A stretch of DNA of 64,000 nucleotides, taken from Gammaproteobacteria bacterium. GTDB lineage: Bacteria > Pseudomonadota > Gammaproteobacteria > Steroidobacterales > GCA-2729495. The notes below the pieces were generated by a model, which was not told the origin of the DNA, made no database searches, and saw only the letters and a list, made by a program, of their open reading frames with translations. The DNA is taken from NCBI GenBank assembly GCA_036351295.1, contig JAZBOT010000110.1, positions 3,567 through 67,566 of the forward strand, read 5' to 3'. The stretch's first letter is position 1. Each line of letters opens with the position of its first letter. A program made the position numbers and the translations under genes. Shown piece by piece: positions 1,300-27,772 of the stretch.

Positions 1300-2672
<1,373 letters not shown>

Positions 2673-4674: not shown

Positions 4675-4683
4675 GCGCCCCCG

Positions 4684-8147: not shown

Positions 8148-8163
8148 TGGCACGCGACTTGCT
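8148..8163 (+). promoter_or_regulatory. sigma-54 (-24/-12) promoter upstream of fliK
   Basis: TGGCACGCGACTTGCT = TGGCAC-N5-TTGC; 36 nt upstream of the fliK GTG start. Confidence 0.75.
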
Positions 8164-9681: not shown

Positions 9682-9697
9682 TGGCACGAGTCTTGCT
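9682..9697 (+). promoter_or_regulatory. sigma-54 (-24/-12) promoter upstream of fliL
   Basis: TGGCACGAGTCTTGCT = TGGCAC-N5-TTGC; preceded by an AT-rich tract (about 9629-9670); 46 nt upstream of fliL ATG. Confidence 0.75.
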
Positions 9698-9742: not shown

Positions 9743-10309
9743 ATGGCAGATGAATCGGCAGATGGAAAGGCCGCCAAGGCGGCGAAGTCAGGTGGCATAG
9801 GCGGCAAACTGGTTAACGCCATCGGCATACTCGTGCTGGTTGTGGGTGGCAACCTGCTGGCCAACGTCATTGTCCGCGACTTCCTTCCGCAGCTGGCGCC
9901 TGCCGCTGCAGTCATGGCGGAAGACGGCAAAGGCGGCAAGGCAGCCAAGTCCAAGAAAGAGAAGAAGCAGGGGCCACCGATCTACCTGGCCCTTGACCCC
10001 CCGCTGGTGGCCAGTGTTGATGACGGGCAGGCGATCCGTTTCGTGCAGATTACTGTCGAGGTCATGGGCCGCGAGCAGCAGACCCTGGACGCGGTGGTGG
10101 CGCATACACCGGTCATTCGCAACAACCTTCTGATGCTGCTTGGACGCAAGAGCATTGCCGAGCTCACCAGTAGCGAAGGTAAAGAAGCGTTGCGCGCCGA
10201 AGCGCTCGAAGAGGTTCGCAGCATTCTGGAAAAGATGGGTCCGGCGGACCCGGATCTGCCGCTGGGTGAACTTGAGGACCTTTATTTCACTTCGTTTGTA
10301 GTGCAGTAG
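9743..10309 (+). CDS. fliL: Flagellar basal body-associated protein FliL
   Basis: 188 aa; single N-terminal TM; PIYLALDPPLVASV...FVQITVEV motif; sits before fliM. Confidence 0.85.
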   Translation: MADESADGKAAKAAKSGGIGGKLVNAIGILVLVVGGNLLANVIVRDFLPQLAPAAAVMAEDGKGGKAAKSKKEKKQGPPIYLALDPPLVASVDDGQAIRFVQITVEVMGREQQTLDAVVAHTPVIRNNLLMLLGRKSIAELTSSEGKEALRAEALEEVRSILEKMGPADPDLPLGELEDLYFTSFVVQ

Positions 10310-10365: not shown

Positions 10366-11355
10366 ATGGAATCCAACGAAGTACTGACCGGAGAGGAGTC
10401 TGAGGCGCTGCGCGACAGCGGAGCGGCTGACGTCTCTGCCCCGACGCCCGATGCGGGCGGGGTGCGTGCCCTGGATCCGGATCACTGGGATCGTATTTTC
10501 AAGGATCGCGCTCCGGCGCTTGAGTCTATTGCCGAGCGGATGGTCAGCCGCTTCAAACAAACCGGCCGACGGTTCTTTCGCGAGCCTGTGAGCGTCACGG
10601 CCGGGCCGGCGGAACGCGTCCGCTGGGGTGTTTACATGCGCAAGCTGGCGGTGCCGGCCAGTATGCACGAGATAGCAATCGCGCCCCTGGGTCTCAGCGG
10701 CGTGATCTGCCTGGACGCCAACTTCGTATTCTCGCTGGCCGACAAATTTTTCGGCGGTAATGGCCAGGCGGAACGGCCCGTGGAGCTTGCCGAATTTACG
10801 CCGATGGAAGATCGGCTCGTGCGTCGTTTTATCACCGCTCTCGTCGAGGACATGGAGTCTTCCTGGAAGCCGCTGGTGGAACTCAAGTTCACGATGGGGC
10901 GATCCGAAAGCAACCCGCTGTTTCTCTCGATCGCGGCTGACTCCGACACATTGTCGCTGACAACTTTTACCTTCGACTATGCAGGGCGCCAGTTCCAACT
11001 CGATATCGCCCTTCCGGGCGTGTTGATCGAGCCCATGCAGTTTGTCGGCAAGAAAGCTTCCCAGGGCAGCAGTATGAGCAACCGTGGGTGGCACAGCCAG
11101 ATTCGCGAGGACATGCAGGAAGCGCGAGTCACCCTGCGCGCCGTGCTGGCAGAGACCCAGATTAATTTGCGGGATCTGACGACCGGCCGGCCAGGTGATG
11201 TGATTCCTATCGCCGCACCCCGGTCGGTGCGCTTGCTGACCGGCGAGCAGGCGGTCTTTGAAGGGACCTTCGGAATTATTCGCGAGCATCATGCGGTCCA
11301 GGTGACCCGTCAGATCAGCGGCGAGAAAAAATCAGGAGACAAGAAATATGGTTGA
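10366..11355 (+). CDS. fliM: Flagellar motor switch protein FliM
   Basis: 329 aa; N-terminal LTGEESEALR (CheY-P-binding-like) peptide; synteny fliL-fliM-fliN. Confidence 0.9.
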   Translation: MESNEVLTGEESEALRDSGAADVSAPTPDAGGVRALDPDHWDRIFKDRAPALESIAERMVSRFKQTGRRFFREPVSVTAGPAERVRWGVYMRKLAVPASMHEIAIAPLGLSGVICLDANFVFSLADKFFGGNGQAERPVELAEFTPMEDRLVRRFITALVEDMESSWKPLVELKFTMGRSESNPLFLSIAADSDTLSLTTFTFDYAGRQFQLDIALPGVLIEPMQFVGKKASQGSSMSNRGWHSQIREDMQEARVTLRAVLAETQINLRDLTTGRPGDVIPIAAPRSVRLLTGEQAVFEGTFGIIREHHAVQVTRQISGEKKSGDKKYG

Positions 11356-11716
11356 TTCCAACACCACCGAGCCCGGCGCGGCGGGTGCTGCAGGTACCGG
11401 TTTCCAAGCGCCCGATTTTGAGGAAGTCGCGCAGACCCAGGCTGGCAAATCGGCCGGCGCTGAGCCCGACCTCGATGTGATTCTCGATGTGCCGGTGACG
11501 CTGTCGCTTGAAGTCGGCCGCGCCCAGATGAGCGTCGGCGAATTGCTGCGGCTGAGTCACGGCGCCGTGGTCGAGCTCGACCGCAAAGCGGGGGAGCCGC
11601 TGGATGTGCTGGTCAATGGCGCGCTGGTAGCGCGGGGCGAAATTGTGGTGGTCAACGACAAATTTGGTATTCGGCTGACCGAGGTTGTGTCGCAGCGGAA
11701 ACAGCTGCCGGCGTAA
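11348..11716 (+). CDS. fliN: Flagellar motor switch protein FliN
   Basis: 122 aa; SpoA-type C-terminus LDVLVNGALVARGEIVVVNDKFGIRLTEVV; overlaps fliM end. Confidence 0.92.
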   Translation: MVDSNTTEPGAAGAAGTGFQAPDFEEVAQTQAGKSAGAEPDLDVILDVPVTLSLEVGRAQMSVGELLRLSHGAVVELDRKAGEPLDVLVNGALVARGEIVVVNDKFGIRLTEVVSQRKQLPA

Positions 11717-12244
11717 ATGAGCATGTGCAGCAACAGTGTGGGTTTACGGGCTGTGGCCATGGTGTTCGCCATCGCACTGCTCATGGCGTACAGCGGCCTG
11801 AGTCAGGCTGAGACAGAAGCCGACTCGGTGTCGCCCCCGGCAGCCGAACCGGAAGCCGGCACGCCTGCAAGCAGCCCGCCGGCGGCGCGGACTGCGAAAA
11901 ATGTGGTGCCGGGCGGTGACCTCGACGGCATGTCGGGACCGCTGGTGCGAATGCTGTTGAGCCTCCTTGCGGTGCTGGCTGTGCTCGGCGCATGCGCCTG
12001 GGTGGCCCGGCGCGTGCGCGGCACACAAATTCAGGGCGGCCTCATACAAATTGTCAGCGGTTTGTCGCTGGGCCCCAAGGAGAAAGTAGTGCTGCTGCGG
12101 GTAGGCGACGACCAGGTCCTCGTGGGCCTGAGTGCGGCAGGCATGCAGCCGCTGCACGTGATGGGCAAGACCGCGCCGCAGGCTTTCTCACTGCGCATGG
12201 CGGAAGCGGCGGACCATGAGAAACTGAAGGAGCAAGCGTCGTGA
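11717..12244 (+). CDS. fliO: Flagellar biosynthesis protein FliO
   Basis: 175 aa; position between fliN and fliP; central TM LLSLLAVLAVLGACAWVA; N-terminal hydrophobic segment plus Pro/Ala-rich linker is longer than usual. Confidence 0.7.
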   Translation: MSMCSNSVGLRAVAMVFAIALLMAYSGLSQAETEADSVSPPAAEPEAGTPASSPPAARTAKNVVPGGDLDGMSGPLVRMLLSLLAVLAVLGACAWVARRVRGTQIQGGLIQIVSGLSLGPKEKVVLLRVGDDQVLVGLSAAGMQPLHVMGKTAPQAFSLRMAEAADHEKLKEQAS

Positions 12245-12990
12245 GACTGATGGCGTTTCTGTTGGTGCTGGTTTTTGTCGGTGACGGTGCCATGGCTCAG
12301 GAGGCGGGCGGCGGCATCCCTGCCGTTTCGCTGATCGAGGGCGCTGACGGCGGCCGTACATGGTCGGTCAGTCTGCAGATTCTGTTTATCATGACGGCGC
12401 TTACGGTGTTGCCGTCGCTGGTGCTGGCTACCACTTCGTTCACCCGCATCATTATCGTGCTGGCGATTTTGCGTCAGGCGCTGGGTATGCCCCAGACTCC
12501 CCCGAACAACGTGCTGGTCGGTCTGGCGTTGTTCCTGAGCTTATTTGTCATGAGCCCGGTGCTGACGGAGGTCTATGACAACGCAATCGGGCCGTATGCC
12601 GAGGGCGTAATGGAAATCGACGAGGCAGCGCTGGCGGCGCAGATTCCCATGCGCGAGTTCATGCTGGGACAAACTCGTGAGCCGGATATCGCGCTGTTTG
12701 CAGGCCTTGCCGGCGATGAAGGTTATGCCGACGTCAACGATATACCGCTGACGGTGCTCATGCCGAGTTTTCTTACCAGCGAGCTGAAAACGGCGTTTCA
12801 GATTGGCTTTCTGACGTTCATACCGTTCCTGATTATCGACCTCGTCGTCTCGAGCGTCCTGATGTCGATGGGCATGATGATGCTGTCGCCCATGCTCATC
12901 TCGCTGCCGTTCAAGATCATGCTGTTTGTGCTGGTCGATGGCTGGACTTTGCTTATGGGCACCCTGGCCTCCAGTTTTGCTATTGCGTGA
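12241..12990 (+). CDS. fliP: Flagellar type III export apparatus protein FliP
   Basis: 249 aa; signal peptide; MMMLSPMLISLPFKIMLFVLVDGW motif. Confidence 0.95.
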   Translation: MRLMAFLLVLVFVGDGAMAQEAGGGIPAVSLIEGADGGRTWSVSLQILFIMTALTVLPSLVLATTSFTRIIIVLAILRQALGMPQTPPNNVLVGLALFLSLFVMSPVLTEVYDNAIGPYAEGVMEIDEAALAAQIPMREFMLGQTREPDIALFAGLAGDEGYADVNDIPLTVLMPSFLTSELKTAFQIGFLTFIPFLIIDLVVSSVLMSMGMMMLSPMLISLPFKIMLFVLVDGWTLLMGTLASSFAIA

Positions 12991-14099: not shown

Positions 14100-15237
14100 A
14101 CAACAGGCTCAGGAACGCACCGAACAGGCGACCCCCAAGCGCCTCGAGGAGGCGCGGCGCAAAGGCCAGATTCCCCGCTCGCGGGAGCTGAACATGGCCG
14201 CCGTGATGATCGGCGGGGCGCTGGTGATGTTTGTATCCGGGCCGGCCATGGTCAGCGCGCTGATTGACCTGATGCGGCGTGGGCTGACCATCGACCCTGC
14301 GCACATCCAGTACCCGGGAGCCCTGGTCGCCGCACTGTCGGCCGCCACCTGGGAATCACTGGCGGCTATCGCCCCGCTGCTGGTGGTGGTCATGATCGCC
14401 GCGATCGCCGGCGGGGTGGCGCTTGGCGGGTGGGCGTTCAGCGCGACTCCGCTGGCCCCTAAGCTGAGCAAACTCGATCCGCTCAAAGGCCTGCAGCGCG
14501 TTTTCGGGCTTAAAGGCCTGGTTGAAGTGGCCAAGGCGCTGGGCAAGGCCGGCATAGTCGGCGCCGCAGCTGCGGTGGTGCTGTACGCGGGCGCGCAGCA
14601 GTTGCTCAACCTTAACCTGATGCCGCTGCCGGAAGCGTTGGGTGCGGCGAGTCTGCTGATGACTACCGTCTTTATGGTGGCCTGTGTTTCGCTGCTCGTG
14701 ATTGCGCTCTTCGATGTGCCGTTCCAGATGTGGAACCACCAGAAAGAACTGCGCATGACGCGCAAGGAAGTGCAGGACGAACTCAAGGAGTCGGAGGGCC
14801 GTCCGGAGGTCAAGAACCGCGTCCGCGCCCTGCAGCAGGAAATAGCCAACCGGCGGATGCTGCGTGACGTGCCCGATGCGGACGTTATCGTGACCAACCC
14901 CGAACACTTTGCAGTGGCGCTCCGCTATGACGACGGGAAGATGAGCGCACCGGTTGTCGTCGCCAGCGGGGTCGACTTTATGGCCGCGAAGATTCGCGAG
15001 ATAGCCGCGGCGCACAACGTGCCGGTGTTTGCGGCGCCGCCGCTCGCGCGCGCCCTGTACTGGAGTACTCCGGTGGGCAGCGCTATACCCGAGAAACTGT
15101 ATGTCGCGGTCGCGCAGGTCCTCACCTACGTATTGCGGCTGCGGGCCTACGCCGAGGGCAGTGCCCCGTATCCCGACCGGCCTGCTGTAGAAGTAGATCG
15201 CGACTACCTCGAATCTGTCAGTGAGGCCGACCGATGA
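14092..15237 (+). CDS. flhB: Flagellar export switch protein FlhB
   Basis: 381 aa; N-terminus EQATPKRLEEARRKGQIPRSREL; autocleavage-type motif as NPEH (VTNPEHFAVAL); GTG start overlapping fliR stop. Confidence 0.95.
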   Translation: MAEQQAQERTEQATPKRLEEARRKGQIPRSRELNMAAVMIGGALVMFVSGPAMVSALIDLMRRGLTIDPAHIQYPGALVAALSAATWESLAAIAPLLVVVMIAAIAGGVALGGWAFSATPLAPKLSKLDPLKGLQRVFGLKGLVEVAKALGKAGIVGAAAAVVLYAGAQQLLNLNLMPLPEALGAASLLMTTVFMVACVSLLVIALFDVPFQMWNHQKELRMTRKEVQDELKESEGRPEVKNRVRALQQEIANRRMLRDVPDADVIVTNPEHFAVALRYDDGKMSAPVVVASGVDFMAAKIREIAAAHNVPVFAAPPLARALYWSTPVGSAIPEKLYVAVAQVLTYVLRLRAYAEGSAPYPDRPAVEVDRDYLESVSEADR

Positions 15238-17309
15238 ACGCTGCCCTGGCACGGTTAAACCTGGTGGCCCGCTCAGGGATCGCACTGCCGATCGGCTTGC
15301 TGGCCATGCTGTCAATGATCGTGCTGCCGCTGCCGGCGATCATGCTGGATGCGCTCTTTACCTTTAACATCTGCCTGTCGTTGATCGTCATCCTTGCGGT
15401 CATCTATGTCATGCGGCCTCTGGATCTGGCCGCGTTCCCGACCATTCTGCTGATCGCAACGCTGCTGCGGCTCGCGCTGAACGTAGCATCAACCCGGGTT
15501 GTGTTGCTGGACCGTCATACCGGCACCGATGCGGCCGGTAAAGTCATCGAGGCGTTCGGTGAGTTTGTGATCGGTGGCAACTATGCAGTCGGCCTCGTCG
15601 TGTTTGCGATCCTGGTGATTATCAATTTCGTGGTGGTCACTAAAGGTGCCGGACGCGTGTCCGAGGTGAGTGCCCGTTTTACCCTCGACGCGATGCCCGG
15701 CAAACAGATGGCGATTGATGCCGACCTTAATGCCGGCATTATCAATCAGGCGCAGGCTCAGGAACGCCGCGGCGAGATACGCACGGAAGCTGATTTTTAC
15801 GGTTCCATGGACGGTGCCAGTAAGTTTGTCAAAGGTGATGCGGTCGCCGGCATTCTGATTTTATTTATTAATTTGCTCGGTGGCACCGTCATCGGGATGG
15901 TGCAGCACGGCCTTGATTTCTCCACAGCGGCCGAGACCTATGCCTTGTTGACGATCGGTGACGGTCTGGTGGCCCAGATCCCGTCGCTGCTGCTCGCCAC
16001 CTCGGTTGCGGTCATTGTGACGCGTATGTCGAAGTCGGAAGACATGGGTTCGCAGCTTGCCACGCAGCTCCTTGGCGACCGCCGGGTACTCCGCGTAACC
16101 GCCGGTATCCTGGCCATTCTCGGGCTGATCCCCGGTATGCCCAACGTCGCGTTCCTGCTGATGGCCGCTGTCTGTGGCGGGGCCAGCTGGTACGCGGCAC
16201 GCGAAGACGGCGTCGCAGCCGCCGCCGAAATCGCTGCGCAGCCGGCCGAGGACCCGGTGGCCAGCGCGAGCGCGCGTGAGCTCAGCTGGGATGATGTCGG
16301 GGAAGCCGATGTGGTTGCGCTGGATGTCGGCTATCGCCTGATACCGCTGGTCGACACCGAACAAAGCGGCGAACTCATGCGGCGTATTAAAGGGGTGCGC
16401 AAGCGCCTGTCCACCGAGCTCGGCTTCCTGATTCCCGCCGTACGCATTCGCGACGACCTGGAGCTCAGTCCGGCGGCGTATCGAATCAGCCTGAACGGTT
16501 CGACGCTGGCCGAAGGTGAGGTCATGCTGGATCGTGAGCTGGCGATCAACCCCGGCCATATCACCGAGGCTGTCGACGGGCTTGCTACCAAGGACCCCGC
16601 ATTCGGGCTGGATGCCGTCTGGATCGACCCGGTCGAGCGTGATTCAGCGCAGGCTAAAGGTTACACAGTCGTCGATGTCTCCACCGTGGTAGCGACCCAC
16701 ATGAGTAAGGTGCTGGCCGATAACGCACACGAATTGTTTGGCCATCAGGAAGCGCAGGAGCTGCTGGACCGGCTTGCGCAGCATTCGCCAAAGCTGGTCG
16801 AGGAGCTGGTCCCGAAGACGCTCCCGCTGAGCACGGTGGTGCGCGTGCTGCAGGAGCTGCTGCGCGATCAGGTGCCGGTCAACAATATGCGCACCATCTG
16901 TCAGGTCCTGGCCGAACAGGGGCGCAGTACCCAGGAGCCGGAAGCCCTCGTGGCTGCGGTGCGCGTGGCCTTGGGCAGGACGCTGGTGCAGCGGGCCAGC
17001 CCCGATTCCGCGGAGCTGGCGGTCATCACGCTGGATCCGCAGCTGGAGCAACTGCTGAAGGAAGCCCTGCAGGGTGACGCGGAGGGCGGAATCGAGCCCG
17101 GACTGGCCGAGCAGGTGCAGAACCGGCTGGCAGAAACGGCACAGCGCCAGGAGGTCGCCGGCGAGCCGGCGGTGCTGCTGGTGTCGCCGGCTATCCGCCC
17201 GTGGCTGGCGCGCTTTCTGCGTTTTGCGGTGCCTAATCTGCGGGTGCTGGCCTACAACGAAGTGCCCGACAGCAAACGGGTGAAACTGGTGGCGGCGGTC
17301 GGCGCTTGA
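15234..17309 (+). CDS. flhA: Flagellar export gate protein FlhA
   Basis: 691 aa; FHIPEP-family N-terminal membrane domain and large cytoplasmic domain; ATGA overlap with flhB. Confidence 0.95.
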   Translation: MNAALARLNLVARSGIALPIGLLAMLSMIVLPLPAIMLDALFTFNICLSLIVILAVIYVMRPLDLAAFPTILLIATLLRLALNVASTRVVLLDRHTGTDAAGKVIEAFGEFVIGGNYAVGLVVFAILVIINFVVVTKGAGRVSEVSARFTLDAMPGKQMAIDADLNAGIINQAQAQERRGEIRTEADFYGSMDGASKFVKGDAVAGILILFINLLGGTVIGMVQHGLDFSTAAETYALLTIGDGLVAQIPSLLLATSVAVIVTRMSKSEDMGSQLATQLLGDRRVLRVTAGILAILGLIPGMPNVAFLLMAAVCGGASWYAAREDGVAAAAEIAAQPAEDPVASASARELSWDDVGEADVVALDVGYRLIPLVDTEQSGELMRRIKGVRKRLSTELGFLIPAVRIRDDLELSPAAYRISLNGSTLAEGEVMLDRELAINPGHITEAVDGLATKDPAFGLDAVWIDPVERDSAQAKGYTVVDVSTVVATHMSKVLADNAHELFGHQEAQELLDRLAQHSPKLVEELVPKTLPLSTVVRVLQELLRDQVPVNNMRTICQVLAEQGRSTQEPEALVAAVRVALGRTLVQRASPDSAELAVITLDPQLEQLLKEALQGDAEGGIEPGLAEQVQNRLAETAQRQEVAGEPAVLLVSPAIRPWLARFLRFAVPNLRVLAYNEVPDSKRVKLVAAVGA

Positions 17310-17334: not shown

Positions 17335-18504
17335 ATGAATATTAAGCGGTATATCGCATCGGACATGCGCCACGCGCTGCAGATGATACGCGATGAGCTC
17401 GGGACGGATGCTGTCATTCTGGAGACTCAGCGATCGAGCGAAGGCGTCGAGGTCTCGGTGGCGGTCGACTTTGACCCGGCGCTGTACGTCAAGCCGGAAC
17501 CGGTAGCCCCCGCGCGGCCTGCACCGGCACAGCCTCCTGCCGCTGAGGCGCAGCCCGCGCCCGCAGAGCCGGCCGCGGCGCCGGTCAACGCGCGTGACGA
17601 TTCGGTGCGCTGTTTACTTGAGGCACGCCTTTCGCGCCTGATCTGGGACGATATGCGCGCCCGCAACCCGGCTGCGACAAACATCATGCGGAACCTGAGC
17701 CGGCTTGGGCTGACACCCGCCGCAGTCGAGCAGGTGATGTCGCGCGCTCCCGACCTTAGTACCCTCGACAACACGTGGTCGGAGCCGCTCAAATGGCTCG
17801 CCGACAGTATCCCCGTCAGCGGCCAGGACCTGATCATGCATGGGGGTGTGTTCGCTGTTGCAGGTCCAACCGGCGTTGGCAAAACGACTTCCATCGCGAA
17901 GCTGGCAGCCCGTTACGCGTTGCAGAACGGTGTGGCGGGCCTCGCGCTGGTGAGCACCGACAACTACCGGATCGGTGCGCGTGAGCAGCTGGAGACCTTC
18001 GCCCGCATTATTGGCGCACCGGTGTACAGCGTGCCCGATGCCGCGCAGCTGGATGCGACGTTGCGTACCCTGAGCGACAAAAAACTGGTGTTGATTGATA
18101 CCGCTGGCATGAGTCAGCGCGACAGCCGTATGGTCACGCAGCTGGACAGCTTGCAGCGCGCCGCAACGCGCATCGACGTGCTGCTGGCGTTACCCGCCAA
18201 TGTCCAGACGGAGACAGCCCACGAAATCGTCCGCGTATTTGCGTCGGCGCAGCCACTTGGCTGCATCCTGACCAAAGTTGACGAAGCGACTTCGCTGGGA
18301 GGAGTGCTGTCTGCCCTGATGGACGCGCGGCTGCCCCTTGCGTACATCTGTGACGGCCAGCGCGTGCCGGAAGACCTCCACCTCGCTGTCCAGCGCTTGA
18401 CGTGGCTGGTGAAAACCGCGATGGACTGTATGCGTGAGCACAGCCCGCGGCTCGGTAAGGACGAACTGGCAGAGCGCTTTGCCAAGGTGGCGATCAGTGC
18501 TTGA
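17335..18504 (+). CDS. flhF: Flagellar placement SRP-type GTPase FlhF
   Basis: 389 aa; MNIKRYIASDMRHALQMIRDELG N-terminus; G motifs GPTGVGKTT, DTAGMSQRD, TKVDE. Confidence 0.92.
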   Translation: MNIKRYIASDMRHALQMIRDELGTDAVILETQRSSEGVEVSVAVDFDPALYVKPEPVAPARPAPAQPPAAEAQPAPAEPAAAPVNARDDSVRCLLEARLSRLIWDDMRARNPAATNIMRNLSRLGLTPAAVEQVMSRAPDLSTLDNTWSEPLKWLADSIPVSGQDLIMHGGVFAVAGPTGVGKTTSIAKLAARYALQNGVAGLALVSTDNYRIGAREQLETFARIIGAPVYSVPDAAQLDATLRTLSDKKLVLIDTAGMSQRDSRMVTQLDSLQRAATRIDVLLALPANVQTETAHEIVRVFASAQPLGCILTKVDEATSLGGVLSALMDARLPLAYICDGQRVPEDLHLAVQRLTWLVKTAMDCMREHSPRLGKDELAERFAKVAISA

Positions 18505-19381
18505 GGGCAGCGCGATTGTGCGTGATCAGGCTGACGGGCTACGCGAGCGGGTGACCCGGCGGCCCGTTAAAGTTATTGCTGTAACGGGGGGTAAGGGCGG
18601 CGTGGGCAAGACCAATGTCTGCGCGAACCTGGCGCTGGCAATTGCGTCGTTGGGTCGCCAGGTCATGGTCCTCGATGCCGACCTTGGCCTGGCAAACGTT
18701 GACGTGCTTTATGGCTTGCAGCCGCGGATGACACTCGCCGATGTCATCCGCGGGGAGTGCCTGCTCACGGATGTAGTGCTGGACGGGCCTGGCGGAGTTC
18801 GGCTGGTGCCGGGTTCGTCCGGGGTCAGCGAGATGGCGCACCTCGATGCCGCAGGTCTGGCCGGGATCGTGCACGCGTTCAGCGACTACAACGACAGTCT
18901 GGATGTGCTGCTGATCGATACCGCACCGGGTATTACGCATGACGTCTTGCGCTTTGCGGAAGCCGCTCACGAGGTGCTGGTGGTGGTCCGTGATGAACCG
19001 ACCTCGCTCACCGACGCTTACGCGGTCGTGAAAGTGCTGAGCATGGAGCGCAACGTGCAGCGCTTCCGGGTAGTCACCAACATGACGCGCGGTGCCGGGG
19101 ACGGGGTGGCTCTCTTTAACAAGCTGGCCCGGGTCACCGATCGGTTTCTGAACGTGTCGCTGCACCATGCCGGCAGTCTGCCTTTCGACGAGCGCGTCGG
19201 GCGCGCTGTGCAGCAGCAGCGGCCGTTTGTGGCCGCCTATCCGACCAGCATGGCGGCCTTGTCGATGCACCGGCTCGCGGAGCGTGCCGACAGCTGGGAT
19301 ATCCCGGCGCAGGCGCGCGGCAATATTGAGTTCTTCCTGGAGCGTCTGATCGGATTGCCGCGGGCGCCTGCTGCGGTTTAA
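18497..19381 (+). CDS. flhG: MinD/ParA-type flagellar number regulator FlhG (FleN)
   Basis: Deviant Walker A GGKGGVGKT; N-terminal DQADGLR (DQAxxLR) motif. GTG 18497 or GTG 18518 start; track ORF from 18434 overlaps flhF. Confidence 0.88.
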   Translation: MLEGSAIVRDQADGLRERVTRRPVKVIAVTGGKGGVGKTNVCANLALAIASLGRQVMVLDADLGLANVDVLYGLQPRMTLADVIRGECLLTDVVLDGPGGVRLVPGSSGVSEMAHLDAAGLAGIVHAFSDYNDSLDVLLIDTAPGITHDVLRFAEAAHEVLVVVRDEPTSLTDAYAVVKVLSMERNVQRFRVVTNMTRGAGDGVALFNKLARVTDRFLNVSLHHAGSLPFDERVGRAVQQQRPFVAAYPTSMAALSMHRLAERADSWDIPAQARGNIEFFLERLIGLPRAPAAV

Positions 19382-19383
19382 CG

Positions 19384-20121
19384 ATGGATCCCGCAGCCGA
19401 GTACAAATCCGCCGCGGTCACGTCCGCCGACGAGCTGGTCGAAACCTACGCGCCGCTGGTCAAACAGGTTGCGCTGCACTTGCGCGCACGGCTGCCGGCT
19501 GGGACTGAGCTGGACGACCTGATTCAGGTTGGTCTTATGGCGCTGCTGGATGCTGCCCGCAACTACTCGGCGGCGAAAGGCGCCAGTTTCGAAACCTATG
19601 CACGTATTCGACTGCGGGGTGCCATGCTGGACGAGGTACGCAGCAACGACTGGGCACCGCGCTCGGTCTACAAGAAGCAGCGTGACCTGATTGCAGCGAC
19701 GCGCCGGGTGGAGAACCGGACCGGGCAGGAGGCGCAGTCCGCTGAGGTGGCACAGGAAATGGGGGTCAGCCTCGATGAGTACCATGGCATCCTGGCAGAC
19801 GTATCGATGACACGCTTTTTTAGCCTGGACCAGCTGATGGATGATACCGAATACGACCCGCAGAGTCCGCCAGGCGAGCCGGGTCCGCGGAACGAACTCG
19901 AGAACGACGAATTTCAGGCAGCGCTGGCCGCCGCGATTCAGGAGCTGCCGGAACGCGAGGGTCTGGTGCTTTCGCTGTACTACGTGGAGGACCTGAACCT
20001 GAAGGAAATCGGCGCGGTGCTCGGTGTGACCGAATCGCGCGTATCGCAAATACACTCGCAGGCCGTTGTCCGGCTGCGGGCCCGTCTGGGTGATGAGTGG
20101 AGTGACAACAATGATGATTGA
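19384..20121 (+). CDS. fliA: Flagellar sigma factor FliA (sigma-28)
   Basis: 245 aa; sigma-70 family regions 2-4; region 4.2 LNLKEIGAVLGVTESRVSQIHSQAV; follows flhG. Confidence 0.93.
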   Translation: MDPAAEYKSAAVTSADELVETYAPLVKQVALHLRARLPAGTELDDLIQVGLMALLDAARNYSAAKGASFETYARIRLRGAMLDEVRSNDWAPRSVYKKQRDLIAATRRVENRTGQEAQSAEVAQEMGVSLDEYHGILADVSMTRFFSLDQLMDDTEYDPQSPPGEPGPRNELENDEFQAALAAAIQELPEREGLVLSLYYVEDLNLKEIGAVLGVTESRVSQIHSQAVVRLRARLGDEWSDNNDD

Positions 20122-20530
20122 ACCGGATTACTGGCTCGCGGCAGCGGCAGCGGGTAGCCTGATACTTGTCCTGCTGGCCTGCCTGCGCGGTTGGCGCACG
20201 CGCCGGCAGCTGCACCAACGCCTCGCCGCTTGCGAACAATCGCTGGGACAAGTCGAGCAGGCGATTCAGTCGTCGGCGACGATCTTTGCGGCGCTGGAGG
20301 CACGACTTGATGCCGCCTGTGAGCAGATGGACCAGCTGAGTATGCGGCAGGGCGCGATCGACGCCACCGGGCACAAGGCCGCTTTCCAGCAGGCGATCGC
20401 ACTCATGCGGCGCGGGGCCAGTGCGGAAGAACTCGTCTCGGTCTGCGGCGTGAGCCAGGGCGAGGCCCGGTTGATACAGACCATGTACGGCACGCCGGCG
20501 CCGGCCGATGCATCAGCCCGGGCGAATTAG
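20111..20530 (+). CDS. Small membrane-anchored protein, DUF2802-like (family normally at the end of che/mot clusters)
   Basis: 139 aa from ATG 20111, overlapping fliA stop by 11 nt; one N-terminal TM, coiled coil, C-terminal EELVSVCGVSQGEARLIQTMYG. Family assignment is from memory. Confidence 0.55.
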   Translation: MMIEPDYWLAAAAAGSLILVLLACLRGWRTRRQLHQRLAACEQSLGQVEQAIQSSATIFAALEARLDAACEQMDQLSMRQGAIDATGHKAAFQQAIALMRRGASAEELVSVCGVSQGEARLIQTMYGTPAPADASARAN

Positions 20531-20557: not shown

Positions 20558-20695
20558 ACTGCCAAAAAATGTGACTCAAGGCCGGGTCACCGCCGGCGCA
20601 AGTCTTTACGTTACGGTAAATGGCGCTGGCGCAGCGCCGTGAGCGAGAACCCCCGTGGGGCGCGGGTGGCGCAGACCGACGTTAAGGACACAACC

Positions 20696-22216
20696 ATGGC
20701 CGAACTATCTCCGGAACTTCTGGATAAACTTAAAAACTGCAAGAATCTGCCGACCCTGCCGAAAGCGGCCATGCGTATTATCGAAGTCGCGCAGCAGCCT
20801 GAAATCGACATGGGCATGGTGGCCGACGCGGTCAGCGCCGACCCGGCGATTGCCGCCAAGGTGATGCGCATTGCCAACTCCGCTTTGTATGCCCGCCGGC
20901 GGGAAAGCAGCAACCTGCGCCAGGCGCTCATTACGCTGGGTTTGAATGCGACGCTGACGTTGGCGCTCAGCTTCACCCTGGTGAACAAGTTGCGCAAGGA
21001 CCCCACCAAGGGTTTCGACTTCAACCAGTACTGGAAGCGCGCGATTCTGGCGGGCTCATGGTCACGCATGCTGGCCAGCGAAATCGATTTCGTCGGCGCC
21101 GAAGAGGTCTTCCTGGTCTCCCTGCTCCAGGACATCGGCATGCTGGCCGTAGACCGGGTTGCGCCCGAGGTCTACCAAGATATCTCGCCGTTTGAGATAG
21201 CTCACGTAACGCTCGAGCGCCATGAGGCTAACCAACTGGGCGTTAACCATTGCGACGTGGGTGCGTGGTTGCTGGCCGACTGGAATATGCCTGAGATGCT
21301 GGTCGAAGCGGTGCGTCACAGCAACGATCCCAGCGGCGCCAGCGCCGCCGAGGGGCGGCAAACCTTGGTCAAAATCACCACGCTGTCGGGCTTGCTGGCG
21401 GACAGCTGCATTGCCCCCAGCGGGGCGCGCAACATGGGTGAACTGGGCAGTCTGGTCAAGGCGCACCTCAACCTTGACCCCGAACGGCTGGCGCACCTTT
21501 ATGACATGCTGGTCGAGCAGGTTCCCGAGGCGGAGTCGGTGTTTGAGACCGATTTGATGAATTCCGAGGAGATCGAGACGCTGATGGAGACAGCTCGGGA
21601 GACCCTGCTGGTGCGCAACCTGAGCGTATTCTCACAAGCCGCTGAGCTGGTGGAGCGGGCGGAATCGCTGCAGAGCGAGAACATGCAGCTCAAGCAAGCC
21701 AACCGTCTGGATGAGCTCACGCGGGTCTACAACCGCCGGCATTTCGAGGATGCGCTGGGTGAAGAATACGAGTTTGCCGCGAAACACGGTTCATCGCTGA
21801 GCATGATTTTTGTCGATATTGATTATTTTAAAGCCGCGAACGATACCCATGGCCATATGTCCGGTGACAATGTGCTGAAGAGCATCGCCGATTTGCTGAC
21901 CGGTACAGTGCGCGGTAGCGACATTGTGGCGCGCTACGGGGGCGACGAGTTCGTGATTATTCTCCCGGGCACGGATCGCGAGCGGGCGAAACTCGTGGCG
22001 GGACGCATCGTGGAAGGTGCCCGCGAACTGAAAGTGCGCGCGGAAAGTGGTGAGCTGATGCGCGTCACGCTGTCGATTGGCACAGCGACCCAGGATGCAC
22101 AGCATGATTTTGGCAGCTCTGCCGGCCTGATTCGCGCTGCCGATGCCGCGCTCTACGAGTCCAAGAGCAGGGGCCGCGACTGCCATACGGCGTTTGATGC
22201 CAGCGCGGCGGCCTGA
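20696..22216 (+). CDS. HDOD domain - coiled coil - GGDEF diguanylate cyclase
   Basis: 506 aa from ATG 20696 (AAGGA at 20684-20688; track ORF from GTG 20639); HDOD LPTLPKAAMRIIEVAQ...DPAIAAKVMRIANSALY...LITLGLN; intact GGDEF (RYGGDEFVIILPG) with RxxD I-site (RGSD) 5 residues upstream. Confidence 0.85.
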   Translation: MAELSPELLDKLKNCKNLPTLPKAAMRIIEVAQQPEIDMGMVADAVSADPAIAAKVMRIANSALYARRRESSNLRQALITLGLNATLTLALSFTLVNKLRKDPTKGFDFNQYWKRAILAGSWSRMLASEIDFVGAEEVFLVSLLQDIGMLAVDRVAPEVYQDISPFEIAHVTLERHEANQLGVNHCDVGAWLLADWNMPEMLVEAVRHSNDPSGASAAEGRQTLVKITTLSGLLADSCIAPSGARNMGELGSLVKAHLNLDPERLAHLYDMLVEQVPEAESVFETDLMNSEEIETLMETARETLLVRNLSVFSQAAELVERAESLQSENMQLKQANRLDELTRVYNRRHFEDALGEEYEFAAKHGSSLSMIFVDIDYFKAANDTHGHMSGDNVLKSIADLLTGTVRGSDIVARYGGDEFVIILPGTDRERAKLVAGRIVEGARELKVRAESGELMRVTLSIGTATQDAQHDFGSSAGLIRAADAALYESKSRGRDCHTAFDASAAA

Positions 22217-22222
22217 TTGGTC

Positions 22223-23326
22223 TCAGGTATTGTCGAGGCCGATGCCGTAGCGTTTCATTTTCTCTGACAGCGTGGTGCGGCGTATCTGCAGCCGCTCTGC
22301 CGCATGCGCCACGATGCCGCCGGCATCGCGGAGCGCGGCGTCAATAAGCGCCACTTCGATGCTCTCCAGATAGTCTTTCATCGGCATGCCCCGGCAGGCC
22401 GCAATCAGGTCGTCGGTGCTGGTTGCCGGCGCCATCTCGTCCTGTTCCGAGCCGCCGGCGGTGTGCGTGTGCGGCTGGTCGGTACTGTAACGGGCGGGCA
22501 GCAGCCGCTGGTCGACCCTGCCACCCGGGTACAAAATGCACAAACGCTCCATCAGGTTGGACAGCTCACGGACGTTGCCGGGCCAATCGTAGCCGGCCAG
22601 CGCCTGGCGCGCGGACGGCGTGAGGTTGATCAGCGTCAGGCCTGCCTTTGCGCAGCGCTCGAGGCTGCTGTCAATCAGTTCATCGAGGTCTTCCAGCCGC
22701 TCCCGCAGCGGCGGCAGCTCGACCGGAAACACGTTGAGCCGGTAGTAGAGGTCTTCGCGAAACTGATTGCGGCTGATTTCTTCCTCGAGGTTGCGGTGCG
22801 TCGCCGCAATAATGCGAACATCGGCCGACCGGCTGACGTTGCTGCCCACCCGCTCAAACACGCGTTCCTGCAGAACTCTGAGCAGCTTGACCTGCATCGA
22901 CAGGCTCATGTCGCCAATTTCGTCGAGAAACAGCGTACCGCCCTCGGCGGCTTCAAAGCGACCGACGCGGGCCGTCACCGCGCCGGTGAACGAGCCCTTC
23001 TCGTGACCGAATAATTCGCTTTCCAGCAGCTCGGCAGGGATCGCCCCGCAATTGACGGGGACAAAGGGTTTGTCGCGCCGCGGAGACATTTCGTGGATGC
23101 ACCGGGCCGTCCACTCTTTACCCGTGCCCGACTCCCCCGTGATCAGAACATTGGTATTGAAAGCCGCGACCTGCTCGATCAGTCGCCGCACCACCACCAT
23201 TTTGCGGCTATGTCCGGTGGGAAAATAGGCCAGTTGAGGCTGCAGAGCCGGCGGGCCGGAGGGTGCGGCGGCAGCCGTCGCCGGGCCGGAAAGTTCCGTT
23301 GCTGTGAGCTCGCTACGCTTGGTCAT
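22223..23326 (-). CDS. FleQ/FlrA-family sigma-54 activator lacking any N-terminal regulatory domain (AAA+ plus Fis HTH only)
   Basis: 367 aa. Only about 60 residues precede Walker A GESGTGKE and the ORF cannot extend further upstream. [65 protein letters not shown] and [22 protein letters not shown] closely resemble P. aeruginosa FleQ as I recall it. C-terminal [23 protein letters not shown]. Confidence 0.85.
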
Positions 23327-23738
23327 GCGGCGCTGCGGTCATGCCGCATTGCGGCGATTAACGGCCATCCTTGGTCGTCTGCGGGCATTGTGGTTGTCCC
23401 CTCCGGATCCACGCCGTTTGTAACCGTATATGGTCTTTCCTGACCACATACCTATAAGCATCCATTCTTATATTGTTTTCGGGTGAAGACGGCTGTTTAC
23501 AAAAGCCGCTCAATCCATAACTGTAAAATATACCGGCAGCTTTCGGGCTGCGCAATACTTTTCTCAATGTTTTTTAAGTATTTACTCGCGATTTGTCAGT
23601 CGCGTGCGGCTTGCCGCAGCGCGGCTGCCCAAACAACCCTCCGCGTATTGTCAAATTGTGATCTGCATCAAGTTTGTTCATGAGCCTGCTCGCTAGTATG
23701 AGCCTCACTTGCAGCCGCAGTACCCTGAGGATAAATGG

Positions 23739-24614
23739 ATGGACTCAGAAGCAATCAACCCGACCCCCACCGACGCCGCGACCACGCAGGTGGCCTTCCG
23801 GTTTGTGCAGAAAATGGCGGTGGATCTCGACGCTAGTGATGACCTGAAGCTGCCCGGCTTCCCGGAAGTGGTGGCCAAGCTGCAGAAAGCGCTGAGTGAC
23901 GAGCACGGCTCGCTGAAGCAGGTGGCGGTTATCATCAATTCGGAGCCGGCGCTCGCGGCCAGGATGCTGCAGCTGGCCAATTCGGCCGCGTTTCGCCAGT
24001 CCGCCGAACCCGTCGGTGAACTGCGTACGGCGGTCGCCATGCTGGGCTTTAACGTCGTCCGGGCTACCGCAACCAACTTCGCAATGGCGCAGCTGCAGGA
24101 GCAGGACTGGCTGCGGCCGCTGCACCCCGAGCTGCAAAAAATGTGGCGGCAGGCCATCCTCGTGGCCGCCACTTCGTATGTTGTGGCGAAGCATCTGGAA
24201 GCCATGCCCGCCGACAAGGCGATGGTCGCCGGATTGTTCCATCAGCTGGGCATGCTGTATCTCCTGACCGTTGCGTACCGCGATGACAAGGCGCTGCTCG
24301 ACGACCCGGCCTGGCCGCATATTCAGGCCGAGTGGCATCCGACCGTTACGCGCGCCATCCTCGAATCGTGGGGGTTGCCGGAGGACGTGACCTATGCGAC
24401 AGAAAGTCAGGATGCCGTGCTTGACGGCCAAACCGAGAATCTCGACCGGCTCTCGCTGGTGGTCGCCGCCGCCAAATTCTTTGTCTACGAACCCGCTGCT
24501 GCTGATGCTGCGGACAGCCCGCTGAACGACGTGAAGTTTTCGGGGCAGTCTTTTGCTGATCTGGTCGAGCAGAACCGCAGCGAGATCAAGCAGGTGCTGG
24601 CCACGCTGTCGTAG
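23739..24614 (+). CDS. Stand-alone HDOD domain protein
   Basis: 291 aa from ATG 23739 (GAGGA at 23728-23732; track ORF from TTG 23709); LPGFPEVVAKLQKAL...EPALAARMLQLANSAAF...AVAMLGFN HDOD signature; degenerate HD (FHQLGML). Confidence 0.8.
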   Translation: MDSEAINPTPTDAATTQVAFRFVQKMAVDLDASDDLKLPGFPEVVAKLQKALSDEHGSLKQVAVIINSEPALAARMLQLANSAAFRQSAEPVGELRTAVAMLGFNVVRATATNFAMAQLQEQDWLRPLHPELQKMWRQAILVAATSYVVAKHLEAMPADKAMVAGLFHQLGMLYLLTVAYRDDKALLDDPAWPHIQAEWHPTVTRAILESWGLPEDVTYATESQDAVLDGQTENLDRLSLVVAAAKFFVYEPAAADAADSPLNDVKFSGQSFADLVEQNRSEIKQVLATLS

Positions 24615-25230: not shown

Positions 25231-26013
25231 ATGGATCTGGCAACACTCATTGGCCTCGCATGCGGCCTGATCATTATCGTCGCTGCGATGGTCGTCGGTT
25301 CTTCGATCGGCATCTTTATCAACGTTCCCAGTGTCCTGATCGTGCTGGGCGGTACCGCGGCTGCCACACTGATGAAGTTCCCGCTCAGCGACTTTATTTA
25401 TGCGCTTAAAGTCGGAGTCAAACTGTCGTTTGTTAATTCGAACAACCAGCCGAACGAGCTTATTAAGCGCATCATGGACCTGGCCGACAAGGCGCGTAAA
25501 GGCGGTCTCCTGGTTCTTGAGGAAGAACAAATCGACAACACCTTTTTGAAGCGTGGCGTGCAGCTCGGTGTTGACGGCTATGATCCGGAGCTGGTCAAGA
25601 AGTTGCTGCAGAACGAAATGGATTTCGCTGTGGAACGCCAGCAGCTCTCCGAGCAGATTTTTCGCGGCATGGGTGATGCGGCACCGGCCTTCGGCATGGT
25701 GGGCACGCTGGTCGGTCTGGTCCAGATGCTAAGTAACATGAGTGATCCCAGCTCCATCGGCCCGTCCATGGCGGTTGCGTTGCTCACTACGCTTTACGGG
25801 GCCATTATTGCCAACCTGATCTGTATCCCGATTGCCGACAAGATCAGCATTCGCAATGCTGAGGTTATCAAGGTGAAGGGGCTGCTGATTGCCGGTGTCG
25901 GCGGAATTCTCGACGGCGATTCGCCGCGTATTATCGAGGATGTCATGAGCAGCTATCTCGCCGACGACCACGGCGCAGCGCCGGTGGCCGAGCCTGCGGC
26001 TGAGGCCGGCTAA
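25231..26013 (+). CDS. motA: Flagellar stator protein A (PomA/MotA family)
   Basis: 260 aa; MDLATLIGL...SIGIFINVPSVLIVLGG and MVGTLVGLVQMLSNMSDPSSIGPSMAVALLTTLYGAI closely parallel Vibrio PomA as I recall it. Confidence 0.9.
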   Translation: MDLATLIGLACGLIIIVAAMVVGSSIGIFINVPSVLIVLGGTAAATLMKFPLSDFIYALKVGVKLSFVNSNNQPNELIKRIMDLADKARKGGLLVLEEEQIDNTFLKRGVQLGVDGYDPELVKKLLQNEMDFAVERQQLSEQIFRGMGDAAPAFGMVGTLVGLVQMLSNMSDPSSIGPSMAVALLTTLYGAIIANLICIPIADKISIRNAEVIKVKGLLIAGVGGILDGDSPRIIEDVMSSYLADDHGAAPVAEPAAEAG

Positions 26014-26031
26014 CACGCCGGGGCCGCAGCG

Positions 26032-26790
26032 ATGGCGAGGAAAGCGATAGCGAGTTCCGGCGCGCCGGCGTGGATGGCGACCTTCGCCGATCTGATGGCG
26101 CTGATGATGTGCTTCTTCGTGCTGTTGTTCTCGTTCTCACAGATCTACGAGACCAAGTATCGGATGATGGTCGACTCCATGTCGAAGGGATTTGGCAGCG
26201 AGACGACGATTCGTCGGGCCAGTATGGCATCGCCCACGATGGGCACTCCCAGCGCCATTAATTCGCGGCTGAACCAGTTTCAGGCGCCGAGCCGCAGCTC
26301 GCGCTCGCGCAACCGCGTGCTGACGACACAGGCGGCGGAGTCCACCGCAGCGCGGGTCAAACTGGCGCTAAAAACCGACCTGGATGCGGGCAAAATAGCC
26401 GTTGAGACCCAGGGCAACACCGTCATCATCCGACTCCCGGAGGAGGTCGCTTTCCCGCCCGGCAGCGATGTCGTGTCGGCTGAGATCATCGGTATTATCG
26501 ACCGACTGGCCCCCGCCATGCGCGCATCCGAAGGGGTGATCATGGTGACGGGACACACCGACGACCAGCCCATCGCATCGTCCGAGTTTTCGTCCAACTG
26601 GGAGCTCTCTGCGGACCGCGCGGTGGCTGTGATCGAAGAGATTATGGCCTACACCGGTATCCGCGAAGAACGGTTCGCCGCGGTGGGCCATGGCGCCACT
26701 AAACCCATTGCGCCTAACGATACACCGGAGAATCGCGCCAAAAACCGGCGCGTGGAAATCACGATTGTCGAGAATCAGGATGCCCGCTAG
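26032..26790 (+). CDS. motB: Flagellar stator protein B (PomB/MotB family, OmpA-like C-terminus)
   Basis: 252 aa; WMATFADLMALMMCFFVLLFSFS with conserved channel Asp; C-terminal peptidoglycan-binding motif GHTD...NWELSADRA...NRRVEI. Confidence 0.9.
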   Translation: MARKAIASSGAPAWMATFADLMALMMCFFVLLFSFSQIYETKYRMMVDSMSKGFGSETTIRRASMASPTMGTPSAINSRLNQFQAPSRSSRSRNRVLTTQAAESTAARVKLALKTDLDAGKIAVETQGNTVIIRLPEEVAFPPGSDVVSAEIIGIIDRLAPAMRASEGVIMVTGHTDDQPIASSEFSSNWELSADRAVAVIEEIMAYTGIREERFAAVGHGATKPIAPNDTPENRAKNRRVEITIVENQDAR

Positions 26791-27772
26791 CGACGCCGTG
26801 GGAGCAGCGCGCGCGCCGACGACCGCCACAGCCCGCGGGCGCATGTTTGCGCTGGTCGAAGTGGCGGCAGGCCACGGTGGTCTCGCCAGCCGCCTGTTTA
26901 GTGGCTTCGTGGTTGGCCTGATTATTCTGAACGTCCTCGCGGTTATCCTCGAGTCGAATCGCAGTCTCTACGACGATTTCGCGCAGTATTTCTCAGCTTT
27001 CGAAATATTTTCCGTTGCGGTGTTTACCGTTGAGTATTTTGCGCGTGTCTGGGTCGCGCCGGAATATCCGGCGCTGCGAGGGATGTCGGCGTGGCGGGCG
27101 CGGCTGCGCTACATCAGCAAGCCAATGGCCCTGATCGACCTGCTGGCCATTGCGCCGTTTTATCTGGCTCTGGTAGTCCCCATCGACTTGCGCTACCTGC
27201 GCTTGTTCAGGCTGTTGCGCTTGCTGAAGCTGTCCCACTATTTCGATGGGCTGCACATGTTCGTGAAAGTGCTGGGACGCGAGCTCGGGGCGATCGCGGG
27301 CGCGCTGATGACCCTCGTCGTGCTGATCATCATCTCGGCCTGCCTGATGTTCTCTATCGAGAACTCGGCCCAACCCGGACAGTTTGACAGTGTGATGCAG
27401 GCAATCTGGTGGTCGGTGGTCACGTTGACCACGGTGGGCTATGGCGACATTACGCCGGTGACTTTCCTTGGCAAGCTGGTCGCGATGATCATCATGCTGC
27501 TCGGTATCTGCACGATGGCGCTGCCGGCCGGTATTCTGGCCGCCAAGTTTACCGAGGAGCTGCAGCTGCGTCGGGAGCTGATGAATTCCCGCGTGCATGA
27601 AGCGTTGCGCGACGGGGTGCTGGATGACAACGACCTGCGCAGCATCGTCGACCTGCAGGAAAAACTGCGCTTGCCCCCCGAAGTCGTTCAGCAGCTGGTC
27701 GCGCTGAACACGCAGGCGCGCTACGTCAATAATTTTTGCCCGCACTGCGGCGAGCGGCTGGCCACGGACTAG
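26780..27772 (+). CDS. Voltage-gated (Kv-type, 6TM) potassium channel
   Basis: S4 LRYLRLFRLLRLLKLSHYF with Arg/Lys at every third position; selectivity filter TLTTVGYGD. ATG 26780 overlaps motB stop by 11 nt (alternative ATG 26843; track ORF from 26690); C-terminal CPHCGERL. Confidence 0.85.
   Translation: MPASDAVGAARAPTTATARGRMFALVEVAAGHGGLASRLFSGFVVGLIILNVLAVILESNRSLYDDFAQYFSAFEIFSVAVFTVEYFARVWVAPEYPALRGMSAWRARLRYISKPMALIDLLAIAPFYLALVVPIDLRYLRLFRLLRLLKLSHYFDGLHMFVKVLGRELGAIAGALMTLVVLIIISACLMFSIENSAQPGQFDSVMQAIWWSVVTLTTVGYGDITPVTFLGKLVAMIIMLLGICTMALPAGILAAKFTEELQLRRELMNSRVHEALRDGVLDDNDLRSIVDLQEKLRLPPEVVQQLVALNTQARYVNNFCPHCGERLATD

Follow-up and report, generated by a model that had tools for sequence, protein, structure and literature searches.

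The 64-kb stretch of DNA analysed here (64,000 nucleotides of contig JAZBOT010000110.1 from a gammaproteobacterium, hereafter the window) carries on its minus strand, at positions 22223–23326, a gene for a FleQ-like activator of sigma-54-dependent transcription without the N-terminal domain of FleQ. The product of 367 amino acids, read from an ATG in the longest possible open reading frame (ORF) at the locus, is an intact, naturally N-domain-less activator made of an AAA+ module, its lid and a helix-turn-helix (HTH) domain. What is new here is the definition of the clade to which this protein belongs, its remodelled site for cyclic dimeric GMP (c-di-GMP), the near-invariant pairing of its gene with one for an HDOD-GGDEF protein and the relocation of the gene from the slot between fliS and fleS. 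The protein is probably a class-I activator of flagellar genes that is controlled in trans.

FleQ is the textbook switch between motility and biofilm genes under the control of c-di-GMP and FleN. In Pseudomonas aeruginosa, FleQ is regarded as depending on its receiver-like domain to be active (PMC10723142). The short family can be regarded as a natural experiment on the purpose of this domain and on how a FleQ core works without it, and it also raises the question of whether control by a second messenger can move to another site or to a partner protein. Annotation pipelines call these proteins 'FlrA', with neither the missing domain nor the altered ligand site being flagged, and this labelling matters where c-di-GMP effectors are predicted from homology.

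An intact activator without a FleQ domain

A Pfam scan of the activator placed the AAA+ sigma-54 interaction domain (Sigma54_activat, PF00158; E = 1.9e-73) at residues 38–202 (22721–23215, minus strand, as for all parts of this gene), the AAA+ lid (AAA_lid_14) at residues 208–290 (22457–22705) and a Fis-type HTH (HTH_8, PF02954; E = 2.3e-12) at residues 320–360 (22247–22369). No domain was found before residue 38, and the FleQ domain PF06490 was not detected. As a positive control, PF06490 was run on the full-length relative L006, in which the domain was recognised, so that the negative result with the same model is meaningful. The Walker A motif (GESGTGKE) occupies residues 64–71 and the Walker B motif is DEIGD. 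Thus, 63 residues stand N-terminal to Walker A, close to the 60 or so counted in the first-pass annotation of this DNA, which had also claimed that an N-terminal FleQ/receiver (REC)-like domain was absent and that a Fis-type HTH was present; on both points the Pfam results agree with it. The leader (residues 1–37, 23216–23326) is rich in Ala and Pro, and neither its length nor its sequence is conserved; the start MTKRSEL is common to the activator and to the 90%-identical homologue P0002.

The spacer between the activator gene and the divergently oriented HDOD gene measures 382 bp and has a GC content of 50.5%, compared with 62.1% for the window. When 11 canonical FleQ N-terminal domains were used as tblastn queries, no trace of such a domain was found in the spacer or in the rest of the window, the sole marginal match being the receiver domain of FleR (E = 0.34). 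The earlier statement that the AT-rich 380 bp or so upstream hold no ORF for a FleQ domain is therefore correct. The AAA+ core and the HTH were modelled with confidence by AlphaFold from 56 family sequences, whereas residues 1–29 were disordered (predicted local distance difference test, pLDDT, < 50), as was the linker at residues 285–304.

Kinship with FleQ and FlrA

In a sequence search of the PDB the activator scored highest against P. aeruginosa FleQ (378 bits) and Vibrio FlrA (333 bits), followed at lower ranks by FlrC (244 bits), NtrC1 (~228 bits) and PspF (~179 bits). When the AlphaFold model was used in a fold search, the top 11 matches were all FleQ AAA+ chains with 61–62% identity and template modelling (TM) scores of 0.55–0.83 on target length, reaching 0.80–0.83 for isolated AAA+ targets; the identity of the AAA+ domain to those of P. 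aeruginosa FleQ and Vibrio FlrA is likewise 61–62%. Over a trimmed alignment of 325 columns, the activator was 54–60% identical to canonical full-length FleQ/FlrA proteins, in a sample that includes Pseudomonas, Photobacterium, Shewanella, Dyella, Methylomarinum and others, compared with 43–44% to FleR and 41% to LafK of Escherichia coli 042. The alignment with FleQ extends to residue 363, and the HTH recognition region is near-identical to that of FleQ. In a neighbour-joining tree the short proteins formed one clade in 100/100 bootstraps, which branches beside the canonical FleQs or from among them. Judged by these comparisons the activator belongs to the FleQ/FlrA lineage, and the two rankings together with the identity values confirm the nearest kin that had been named by eye.

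A tight family of short activators

The best 120 database matches consisted of the protein of the window and 119 homologue clusters with 60–90% identity, all of them short (320–433 amino acids) and with leaders of 0–70 residues, except for two over-extended gene calls. The 235-residue N-terminal extension of homologue P0084 was considered as a fusion partner and rejected, as it contains no domain and looks like an over-extended gene call. Many of the homologues carry the JGI label 'sigma-54 specific flagellar transcriptional regulator A'.

The distribution of the family was assayed with a family-specific DNA pattern (YFPTG-N94-KEW, with a spacing of 94 nt) run on 185,579 GTDB species genomes, which returned 43 stretches. 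Three of these, from Marinospirillum, Saccharibacteria and Desulfobacterales, were due to chance, and L122 is an unconfirmed stretch that probably is so too, as it gave no tblastn match to the activator; the ~39 others came from metagenome-assembled genomes (MAGs) of uncultured gammaproteobacteria or 'Chromatiales'. When the genomes were searched with the protein sequence, generic activator motifs dominated the output and the close family was not recovered; the best match was 59% identical. The alignment of 56 family members has 130 invariant columns, revealing purifying selection on the family. The short activators thus are, as far as their sequences tell, a tight family under purifying selection in an uncultured gammaproteobacterial lineage, present in ~40 GTDB species. 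As the absence of the domain is shared by more than 100 homologue clusters and ~40 species, it is a natural feature, as had been proposed in the first-pass annotation. Full-text literature searches retrieved no description of this clade.

The c-di-GMP pocket is rebuilt and three FleN contacts are conserved

Functional residues were mapped by a gap-free HMMER alignment to P. aeruginosa FleQ (8p53), in which the numbering of the query is that of FleQ minus 110; residues L32-A33-Y34-F35 of the query fall on LFRS of FleQ and KEWTAR falls on KEVVAR. Among the FleQ residues considered, N186 is reportedly a c-di-GMP contact in the crystal structure of Matsuyama et al. 2016. The other contacts comprise five in cis (R138, R144, R185, E330 and R334) and two in trans (R151 and E332), with R144, R185 and R334 also serving ATP binding (PMC10723142). 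Canonical FleQs have Arg, Asn, Glu/Asp and Arg at the positions of R144, N186, E330 and R334 in 12–16 of 17 sequences, with Arg at R144 in 12/17.

In the short family, the FleQ linker motif (LF)RSLVG is replaced by the signature Y-F-P-T-G (residues 34–38, 23213–23227, minus strand), of which P36 and G38 are invariant and T37 is nearly so. R144 of FleQ corresponds to Tyr34 (Tyr in 48/56 members), V182, a position derived from the offset, to Trp72 (Trp in 56/56), N186 to Cys76 (Tyr in 43/56), E330 to Ser220 (Asn in 38/56 and Ser in 13/56) and E332 to Leu222 (Leu in 45/56), and the positions of R138 and R151 are variable in the family. R185 and R334 are kept as Arg75 (Arg in 54/56) and Arg224 (Arg in 51/56). 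In consequence, six of the eight reported contacts are changed in the activator, and the earlier alignment, which had put a Tyr on the LFRS arginine and had found the Arg after Walker A to be kept, proved right. Binding of c-di-GMP by the activator is questionable, because most of the contacts are changed and the two kept arginines are also used for ATP binding. By alignment, the canonical c-di-GMP site is not preserved, but neither is it decayed: it is swapped for conserved, aromatic-rich residues.

FleN binds the AAA+ domain of FleQ, with contacts at E370, R371 and K389 (PMC8528422). When these three lid contacts were mapped, the corresponding positions were occupied by Glu260 (56/56), Arg261 (56/56) and Arg279 (54/56).

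Near-invariant pairing with a gene for an HDOD-GGDEF protein

Next to the activator gene, in convergent orientation, lies a gene for an HDOD-GGDEF protein of 525 amino acids (20639–22216, plus strand; Pfam), which ends 6 bp from the activator stop codon. The GGDEF motif of this protein is intact and an RxxD I-site is present, with the motif RGSDIVARYGGDEF at residue 425. The same tail-to-tail arrangement was found in 27 of the 28 loci having enough downstream sequence (the exception is L160), with gaps of ~2–330 bp and across activator identities of 60–79%, and GGDEF and the RxxD I-site are both kept in 26 of the 27 neighbouring cyclases. The paired cyclase thus appears to be catalytically competent.

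On the other side, a stand-alone HDOD protein of 301 amino acids is encoded divergently from the activator gene (23709–24614, plus strand; Pfam). This gene is confined to the activator's own subclade (L081/L133, L124, L147 and L149). HDOD proteins such as SadB and GsmR have been tied to flagellar gene expression by a mechanism that is not known (PMC6543031). As candidate partners acting in trans, for which the first-pass annotation had named FlhG/FleN and the neighbouring HDOD proteins, FlhG and the HDOD-GGDEF protein are indirectly supported by the conserved FleN-contact residues and by the pairing in 27 of 28 loci, respectively.

Flagellar cluster, fleQ slot and sigma-54 promoters

Systems of the Pseudomonas and Vibrio polar type are marked by flhF, flhG and the fleSR pair, and according to Pfam the window contains a cluster of this type. 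It comprises fleS (58–1299, plus strand) and fleR (1296–2672, plus strand), fliF, fliG and fliI with intervening ORFs (3082–7679), flhA (15234–17309), flhF (17335–18504), flhG/FleN (18434–19381, plus strand; Pfam ParA/CbiA/AAA_31), whose product, an ATPase of the MinD/ParA type, is a candidate anti-activator, fliA (19384–20121), a DUF2802 gene (20066–20530) and motA and motB (25231–26790). A gene for a voltage-gated-type ion channel (26690–27772, plus strand; Ion_trans, Ion_trans_2) stands directly after motA-motB, a position kept in a 77%-identity relative (L081:5023-6009). The activator gene lies 19.5 kb downstream of fleSR and is convergent on the string flhA-flhF-flhG-fliA-DUF2802-HDOD/GGDEF, in agreement with the earlier remark that it is displaced from fleSR and points towards the flagellar operons.

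A tblastn search of the window with the activator detected only two sigma-54 activators, the activator itself and FleR (44% identity). Exact TGGCAC-N5-TTGC boxes were found three times in the window, all on the plus strand and each 31–47 bp before a flagellar ORF, in line with the three sigma-54 promoters mentioned in the first-pass annotation: the first (TGGCACGGTTCTTGC, 13–27) lies 31 bp before fleS, the second (8148–8162) precedes the ORF at 8199–9551, assumed to be fliK from its position only, and the third (9682–9696) precedes the ORF at 9743–10309, assumed to be fliL likewise from position only.

In eight lineages with a canonical full-length fleQ the gene order is fliD-fliS-[fleQ]-fleS-fleR-fliF. 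The order in L083 and L084, the two closest relatives with long contigs (FleS 75–76% identical), is fliC-flaG-fliD-fliS-orf108, a sigma-54 box, and fleS-fleR-fliF, with no activator gene in the fleQ slot, and the box before fleS is kept in both as TGGCACGTTTCTTGC. Their short gene is found ~20 kb away, after flhA-flhF-flhG-fliA-DUF2802-HDOD/GGDEF, as in the window. The sigma-54 box before fleS calls for an activator that works upstream of FleR; among the proteins seen here, only the short one qualifies as a candidate.

Two additional exact sigma-54 boxes were observed in L083/L084, at 7584–7598 and ~18042, one before fliD and the other further downstream, which points to the cluster being broadly controlled by sigma-54 in this lineage. 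The fleR gene of L084 (11257-12616) was recovered by tblastn in two segments (11257-12426 and 12437-12616), with a product of 410 amino acids without HTH_8, whereas in L083 it is continuous; the split is probably an assembly frameshift in this MAG.

An upstream ORF and the divergent promoter region

A 21-codon ORF with the start MP(x)(H/D)DQGWPL precedes the activator gene (23323–23388, minus strand). It follows a run GGAGGGG, which is Shine-Dalgarno-like, and its TGA overlaps the ATG of the activator (ATGA). In relatives, the ORF is separate in L081/L133 and L124, with the ATGA overlap and a length of 54 codons in L081 and L124, has 23 codons in L149, and is fused in frame as the N-terminus of the activator in L147; it was seen only in the activator's subclade. 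Synonymous codon differences with kept residues suggest that the ORF is translated, and it may possibly give translational coupling. Its interpretation as a remnant of the N-terminal domain, or as a frameshifted N-terminus, was rejected, as the fusion in L147 adds at most ~55 low-complexity residues and no FleQ/REC fold.

Three conserved boxes were found in the divergent promoter region when compared with relatives at 76–77% protein identity, all on the minus strand: TCACAATTTGACAATAC (23645–23661), seen in a three-way alignment, CGGTATATTTT (23525–23535) and AGACCATATA (~23428–23437). The upstream spacer contained no sigma-54 box, and a strict sigma-70 consensus scan of it was also empty.

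Short FleQs outside the YFPTG clade

Across lineages, BLAST with the N-terminal domain was insensitive, full-length proteins from L017, L023 and L028 giving no matches; the proteins below are called short on the basis of stop codons, spacer lengths and Pfam, not of BLAST. In L001 (gammaproteobacterium Ww579), a short FleQ of 373 amino acids (L001:1211-2332) occupies the canonical slot before fleS-fleR-fliF and keeps Arg and Asn at the positions of R144 and N186. A stand-alone HDOD gene (L001:159-1004), whose product is 36% identical to the HDOD protein of the window, lies directly upstream on the same strand. The short FleQ of L007 (a Haliea MAG) has 344 amino acids (L007:1324-2358) and is encoded between fliS and fleS, with an atypical PilZ gene (PF16823; of the c-di-GMP receptor type) directly upstream (L007:651-1214). 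In L016 (a Thiomicrospira cyclica MAG; L016:8211-10969), a short fleQ for 330 amino acids before fleS abuts a toxin-antitoxin-like pair (Gp49/HTH_3) and a fragment of the restriction enzyme MmeI, an apparent scar which suggests that the N-terminal part was lost through insertion. These three proteins are also FleQ-like without the N-terminal domain, but they stand outside the YFPTG clade and are still encoded upstream of fleS; they appear to be independent losses.

Proposed role and alternatives

The above results are probably best explained if the protein is a domain-less flagellar class-I activator of the FleQ/FlrA lineage that is controlled in trans. It would bind FleQ-type enhancer sites through its FleQ-like HTH and, as PspF does, assemble into a working ATPase that has no N-terminal switch, being active by default and restrained in trans. 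In this way it would serve as the class-I activator of the cascade, opening the sigma-54 promoters from which early flagellar genes, among them fleSR, are transcribed. FlhG/FleN would restrain it by docking on the conserved AAA+ surface, and the HDOD-GGDEF cyclase might do so either by means of c-di-GMP bound in the rebuilt pocket with its aromatic lining (Tyr34, Trp72, Tyr/Cys76 and Asn/Ser220; Arg75 and Arg224 are retained) or by its HDOD domain contacting the activator directly. The cyclase gene lies behind fliA in the same orientation, so that a negative feedback from flagellar expression onto the activator could exist.

Within this proposal, the idea that the Tyr34/Trp72/Tyr76/Asn220 pocket is a new regulatory site for control by the cyclase, through stacking of c-di-GMP or docking of HDOD, is offered as a doubtful, although possible, extension. 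If it is true, it would mean, together with the pairings in L001 and L007, that the N-terminal domain of FleQ can be replaced by a separately encoded partner linked to c-di-GMP.

Several points weigh against the proposed role. P. aeruginosa FleQ reportedly cannot act without its REC-like domain, and its AAA+ domain, when isolated, is a weak ATPase (PMC10723142, PMC8528422), so a domain-less protein would need some compensation to be active. The L1 loop that contacts sigma-54 (residues 111–116; 22979–22996, minus strand) reads GSFTGA in the activator and in 7/56 family members including it, the canonical GAFTGA being found in the other 49/56. The change of six c-di-GMP contacts, with only the positions of R185 and R334 kept, belongs on the same side. 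The FleQ box GTCA-N6-TGAC was matched three times in the window against 0.75 expected, which is no convincing enrichment; at least two of the three matches are inside long ORFs and none adjoins the activator gene. Branching in the tree was weak, with 41% bootstrap for short plus canonical proteins and 3% for monophyly of the canonical ones. Finally, a full-length FleQ may possibly be encoded elsewhere in the genome, beyond the window, and all carriers are uncultured, the function of the family being inferred from sequence.

The possible full-length FleQ leads to the first alternative, in which the short protein is an accessory paralogue and a canonical FleQ outside the window is the master regulator. 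The short protein would then tune a subset of genes (motAB, the HDOD genes, adhesion or biofilm loci) or form mixed oligomers, as FleT does in Cereibacter sphaeroides. The analysis of this genome was confined to the window, the gene has left its regulatory slot, hetero-oligomeric activator pairs such as FleQ/FleT and HrpR/HrpS are known (PMC10084136), and the reported need of P. aeruginosa FleQ for its REC domain (PMC10723142) would be respected. Nevertheless, the fliS-fleS slot is without an activator in L083 and L084, and no sigma-54 activators other than the short protein and FleR occur in the ~45 kb of flagellar cluster seen in the window and its relatives. In addition, canonical FleQs stand no further from the short clade than from one another's outliers, and the HTH of the activator is intact, unlike that of FleT. 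This alternative is thus considered unlikely, though it deserves to be kept in mind.

A less probable alternative is a constitutive activator independent of c-di-GMP, controlled only at the transcriptional or translational level, for instance by the coupled upstream ORF, with the cyclase being a passenger of the late flagellar operon that has its targets elsewhere. Such a reading would fit the loss of six of the eight FleQ contacts and the conservation in the subclade of the promoter region and of the ATGA-coupled ORF. However, the replaced positions are strongly conserved (Trp72 in 56/56 and Tyr34 in 48/56), which argues for a retained function at the site, and the pairing in 27 of 28 loci across 60–79% identity is tighter than a passenger would predict.

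It is very improbable that the activator is of the LafK type and serves a lateral or secondary system of flagella: LafK is indeed a known domain-less flagellar sigma-54 activator (PMC3162934), but the identity to that of E. coli 042 is 41%, the tree places LafK far from the clade, the cluster has flhF, flhG and fleSR, and the activator gene is not directly upstream of fliE-fliF. An artefact by which a frameshift, a misassembly or a recent pseudogene removed the N-terminal domain is hardly credible, even for a contig that is probably metagenome-derived and with L016, next to its MmeI fragment and toxin-antitoxin pair, showing that insertional truncation can happen, as the same architecture is found in more than 100 independent clusters from ~40 species, no frame upstream has coding potential for the domain in a spacer of only 382 bp, and the 130 invariant columns reflect purifying selection; a frameshift whose correction would restore the domain, the doubt raised in the first-pass annotation, is excluded by these clusters and columns.

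Comparison with known systems

The activator and the FleQ/FlrA proteins (FleQ of P. aeruginosa and FlrA/FlaK of Vibrio, which are master sigma-54 activators of polar flagella) share an AAA+ domain with Walker A and B motifs and an L1 loop of the GAFTGA type, a Fis-type HTH, the arginines at R185 and R334, the residues at the positions of E370, R371 and K389, and their setting in a polar flagellar cluster with fleSR, flhF, flhG, fliA and sigma-54 promoters. In contrast, FleQ/FlrA proteins have their own PF06490 domain, a gene located between fliS(/fliT) and fleS-fleR and the canonical c-di-GMP contacts. The activator has no such domain and keeps only two of the contacts, and its gene is instead at the distal end of the cluster, as the partner of a gene for an HDOD-GGDEF protein.

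Sigma-54 activators of the domain-less kind form a recognised class, group Ic, which includes PspF, HrpR/S and LafK (PMC3162934), and the activator has the architecture of this group, an AAA+ domain without an N-terminal signal-recognition domain. With PspF and HrpR/HrpS it shares the combination of AAA+ and HTH without an N-terminal sensor (PMC10084136, PMC3162934), and by analogy the logic of these proteins, constitutive activity restrained by a partner (PspA or HrpV, respectively), would be expected for the activator too (PMC10084136, PMC3162934). PspF is far more distant in sequence (179 bits vs. 378 for FleQ) and has another regulon context, and no PspA- or HrpV-like gene was found near the activator. 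LafK, from Vibrio parahaemolyticus, Aeromonas and the E. coli Flag-2 system, is likewise an N-domain-less sigma-54 activator of flagellar genes (PMC3162934), but it differs in its 41% identity, its separate and distant branch and its position at the head of the fliE-fliF operon of a lateral system; the protein of E. coli 042 has 326 amino acids and is encoded directly upstream of fliE-fliF.

FleQ-like proteins without the FleQ domain are already on record in Acidithiobacillus, where they share with the activator the AAA+-HTH architecture and the flagellar or c-di-GMP contexts (PMC6416229). Compared by description only, the Acidithiobacillus forms reportedly keep most of the c-di-GMP residues (PMC6416229), whereas the activator family has replaced most of them.

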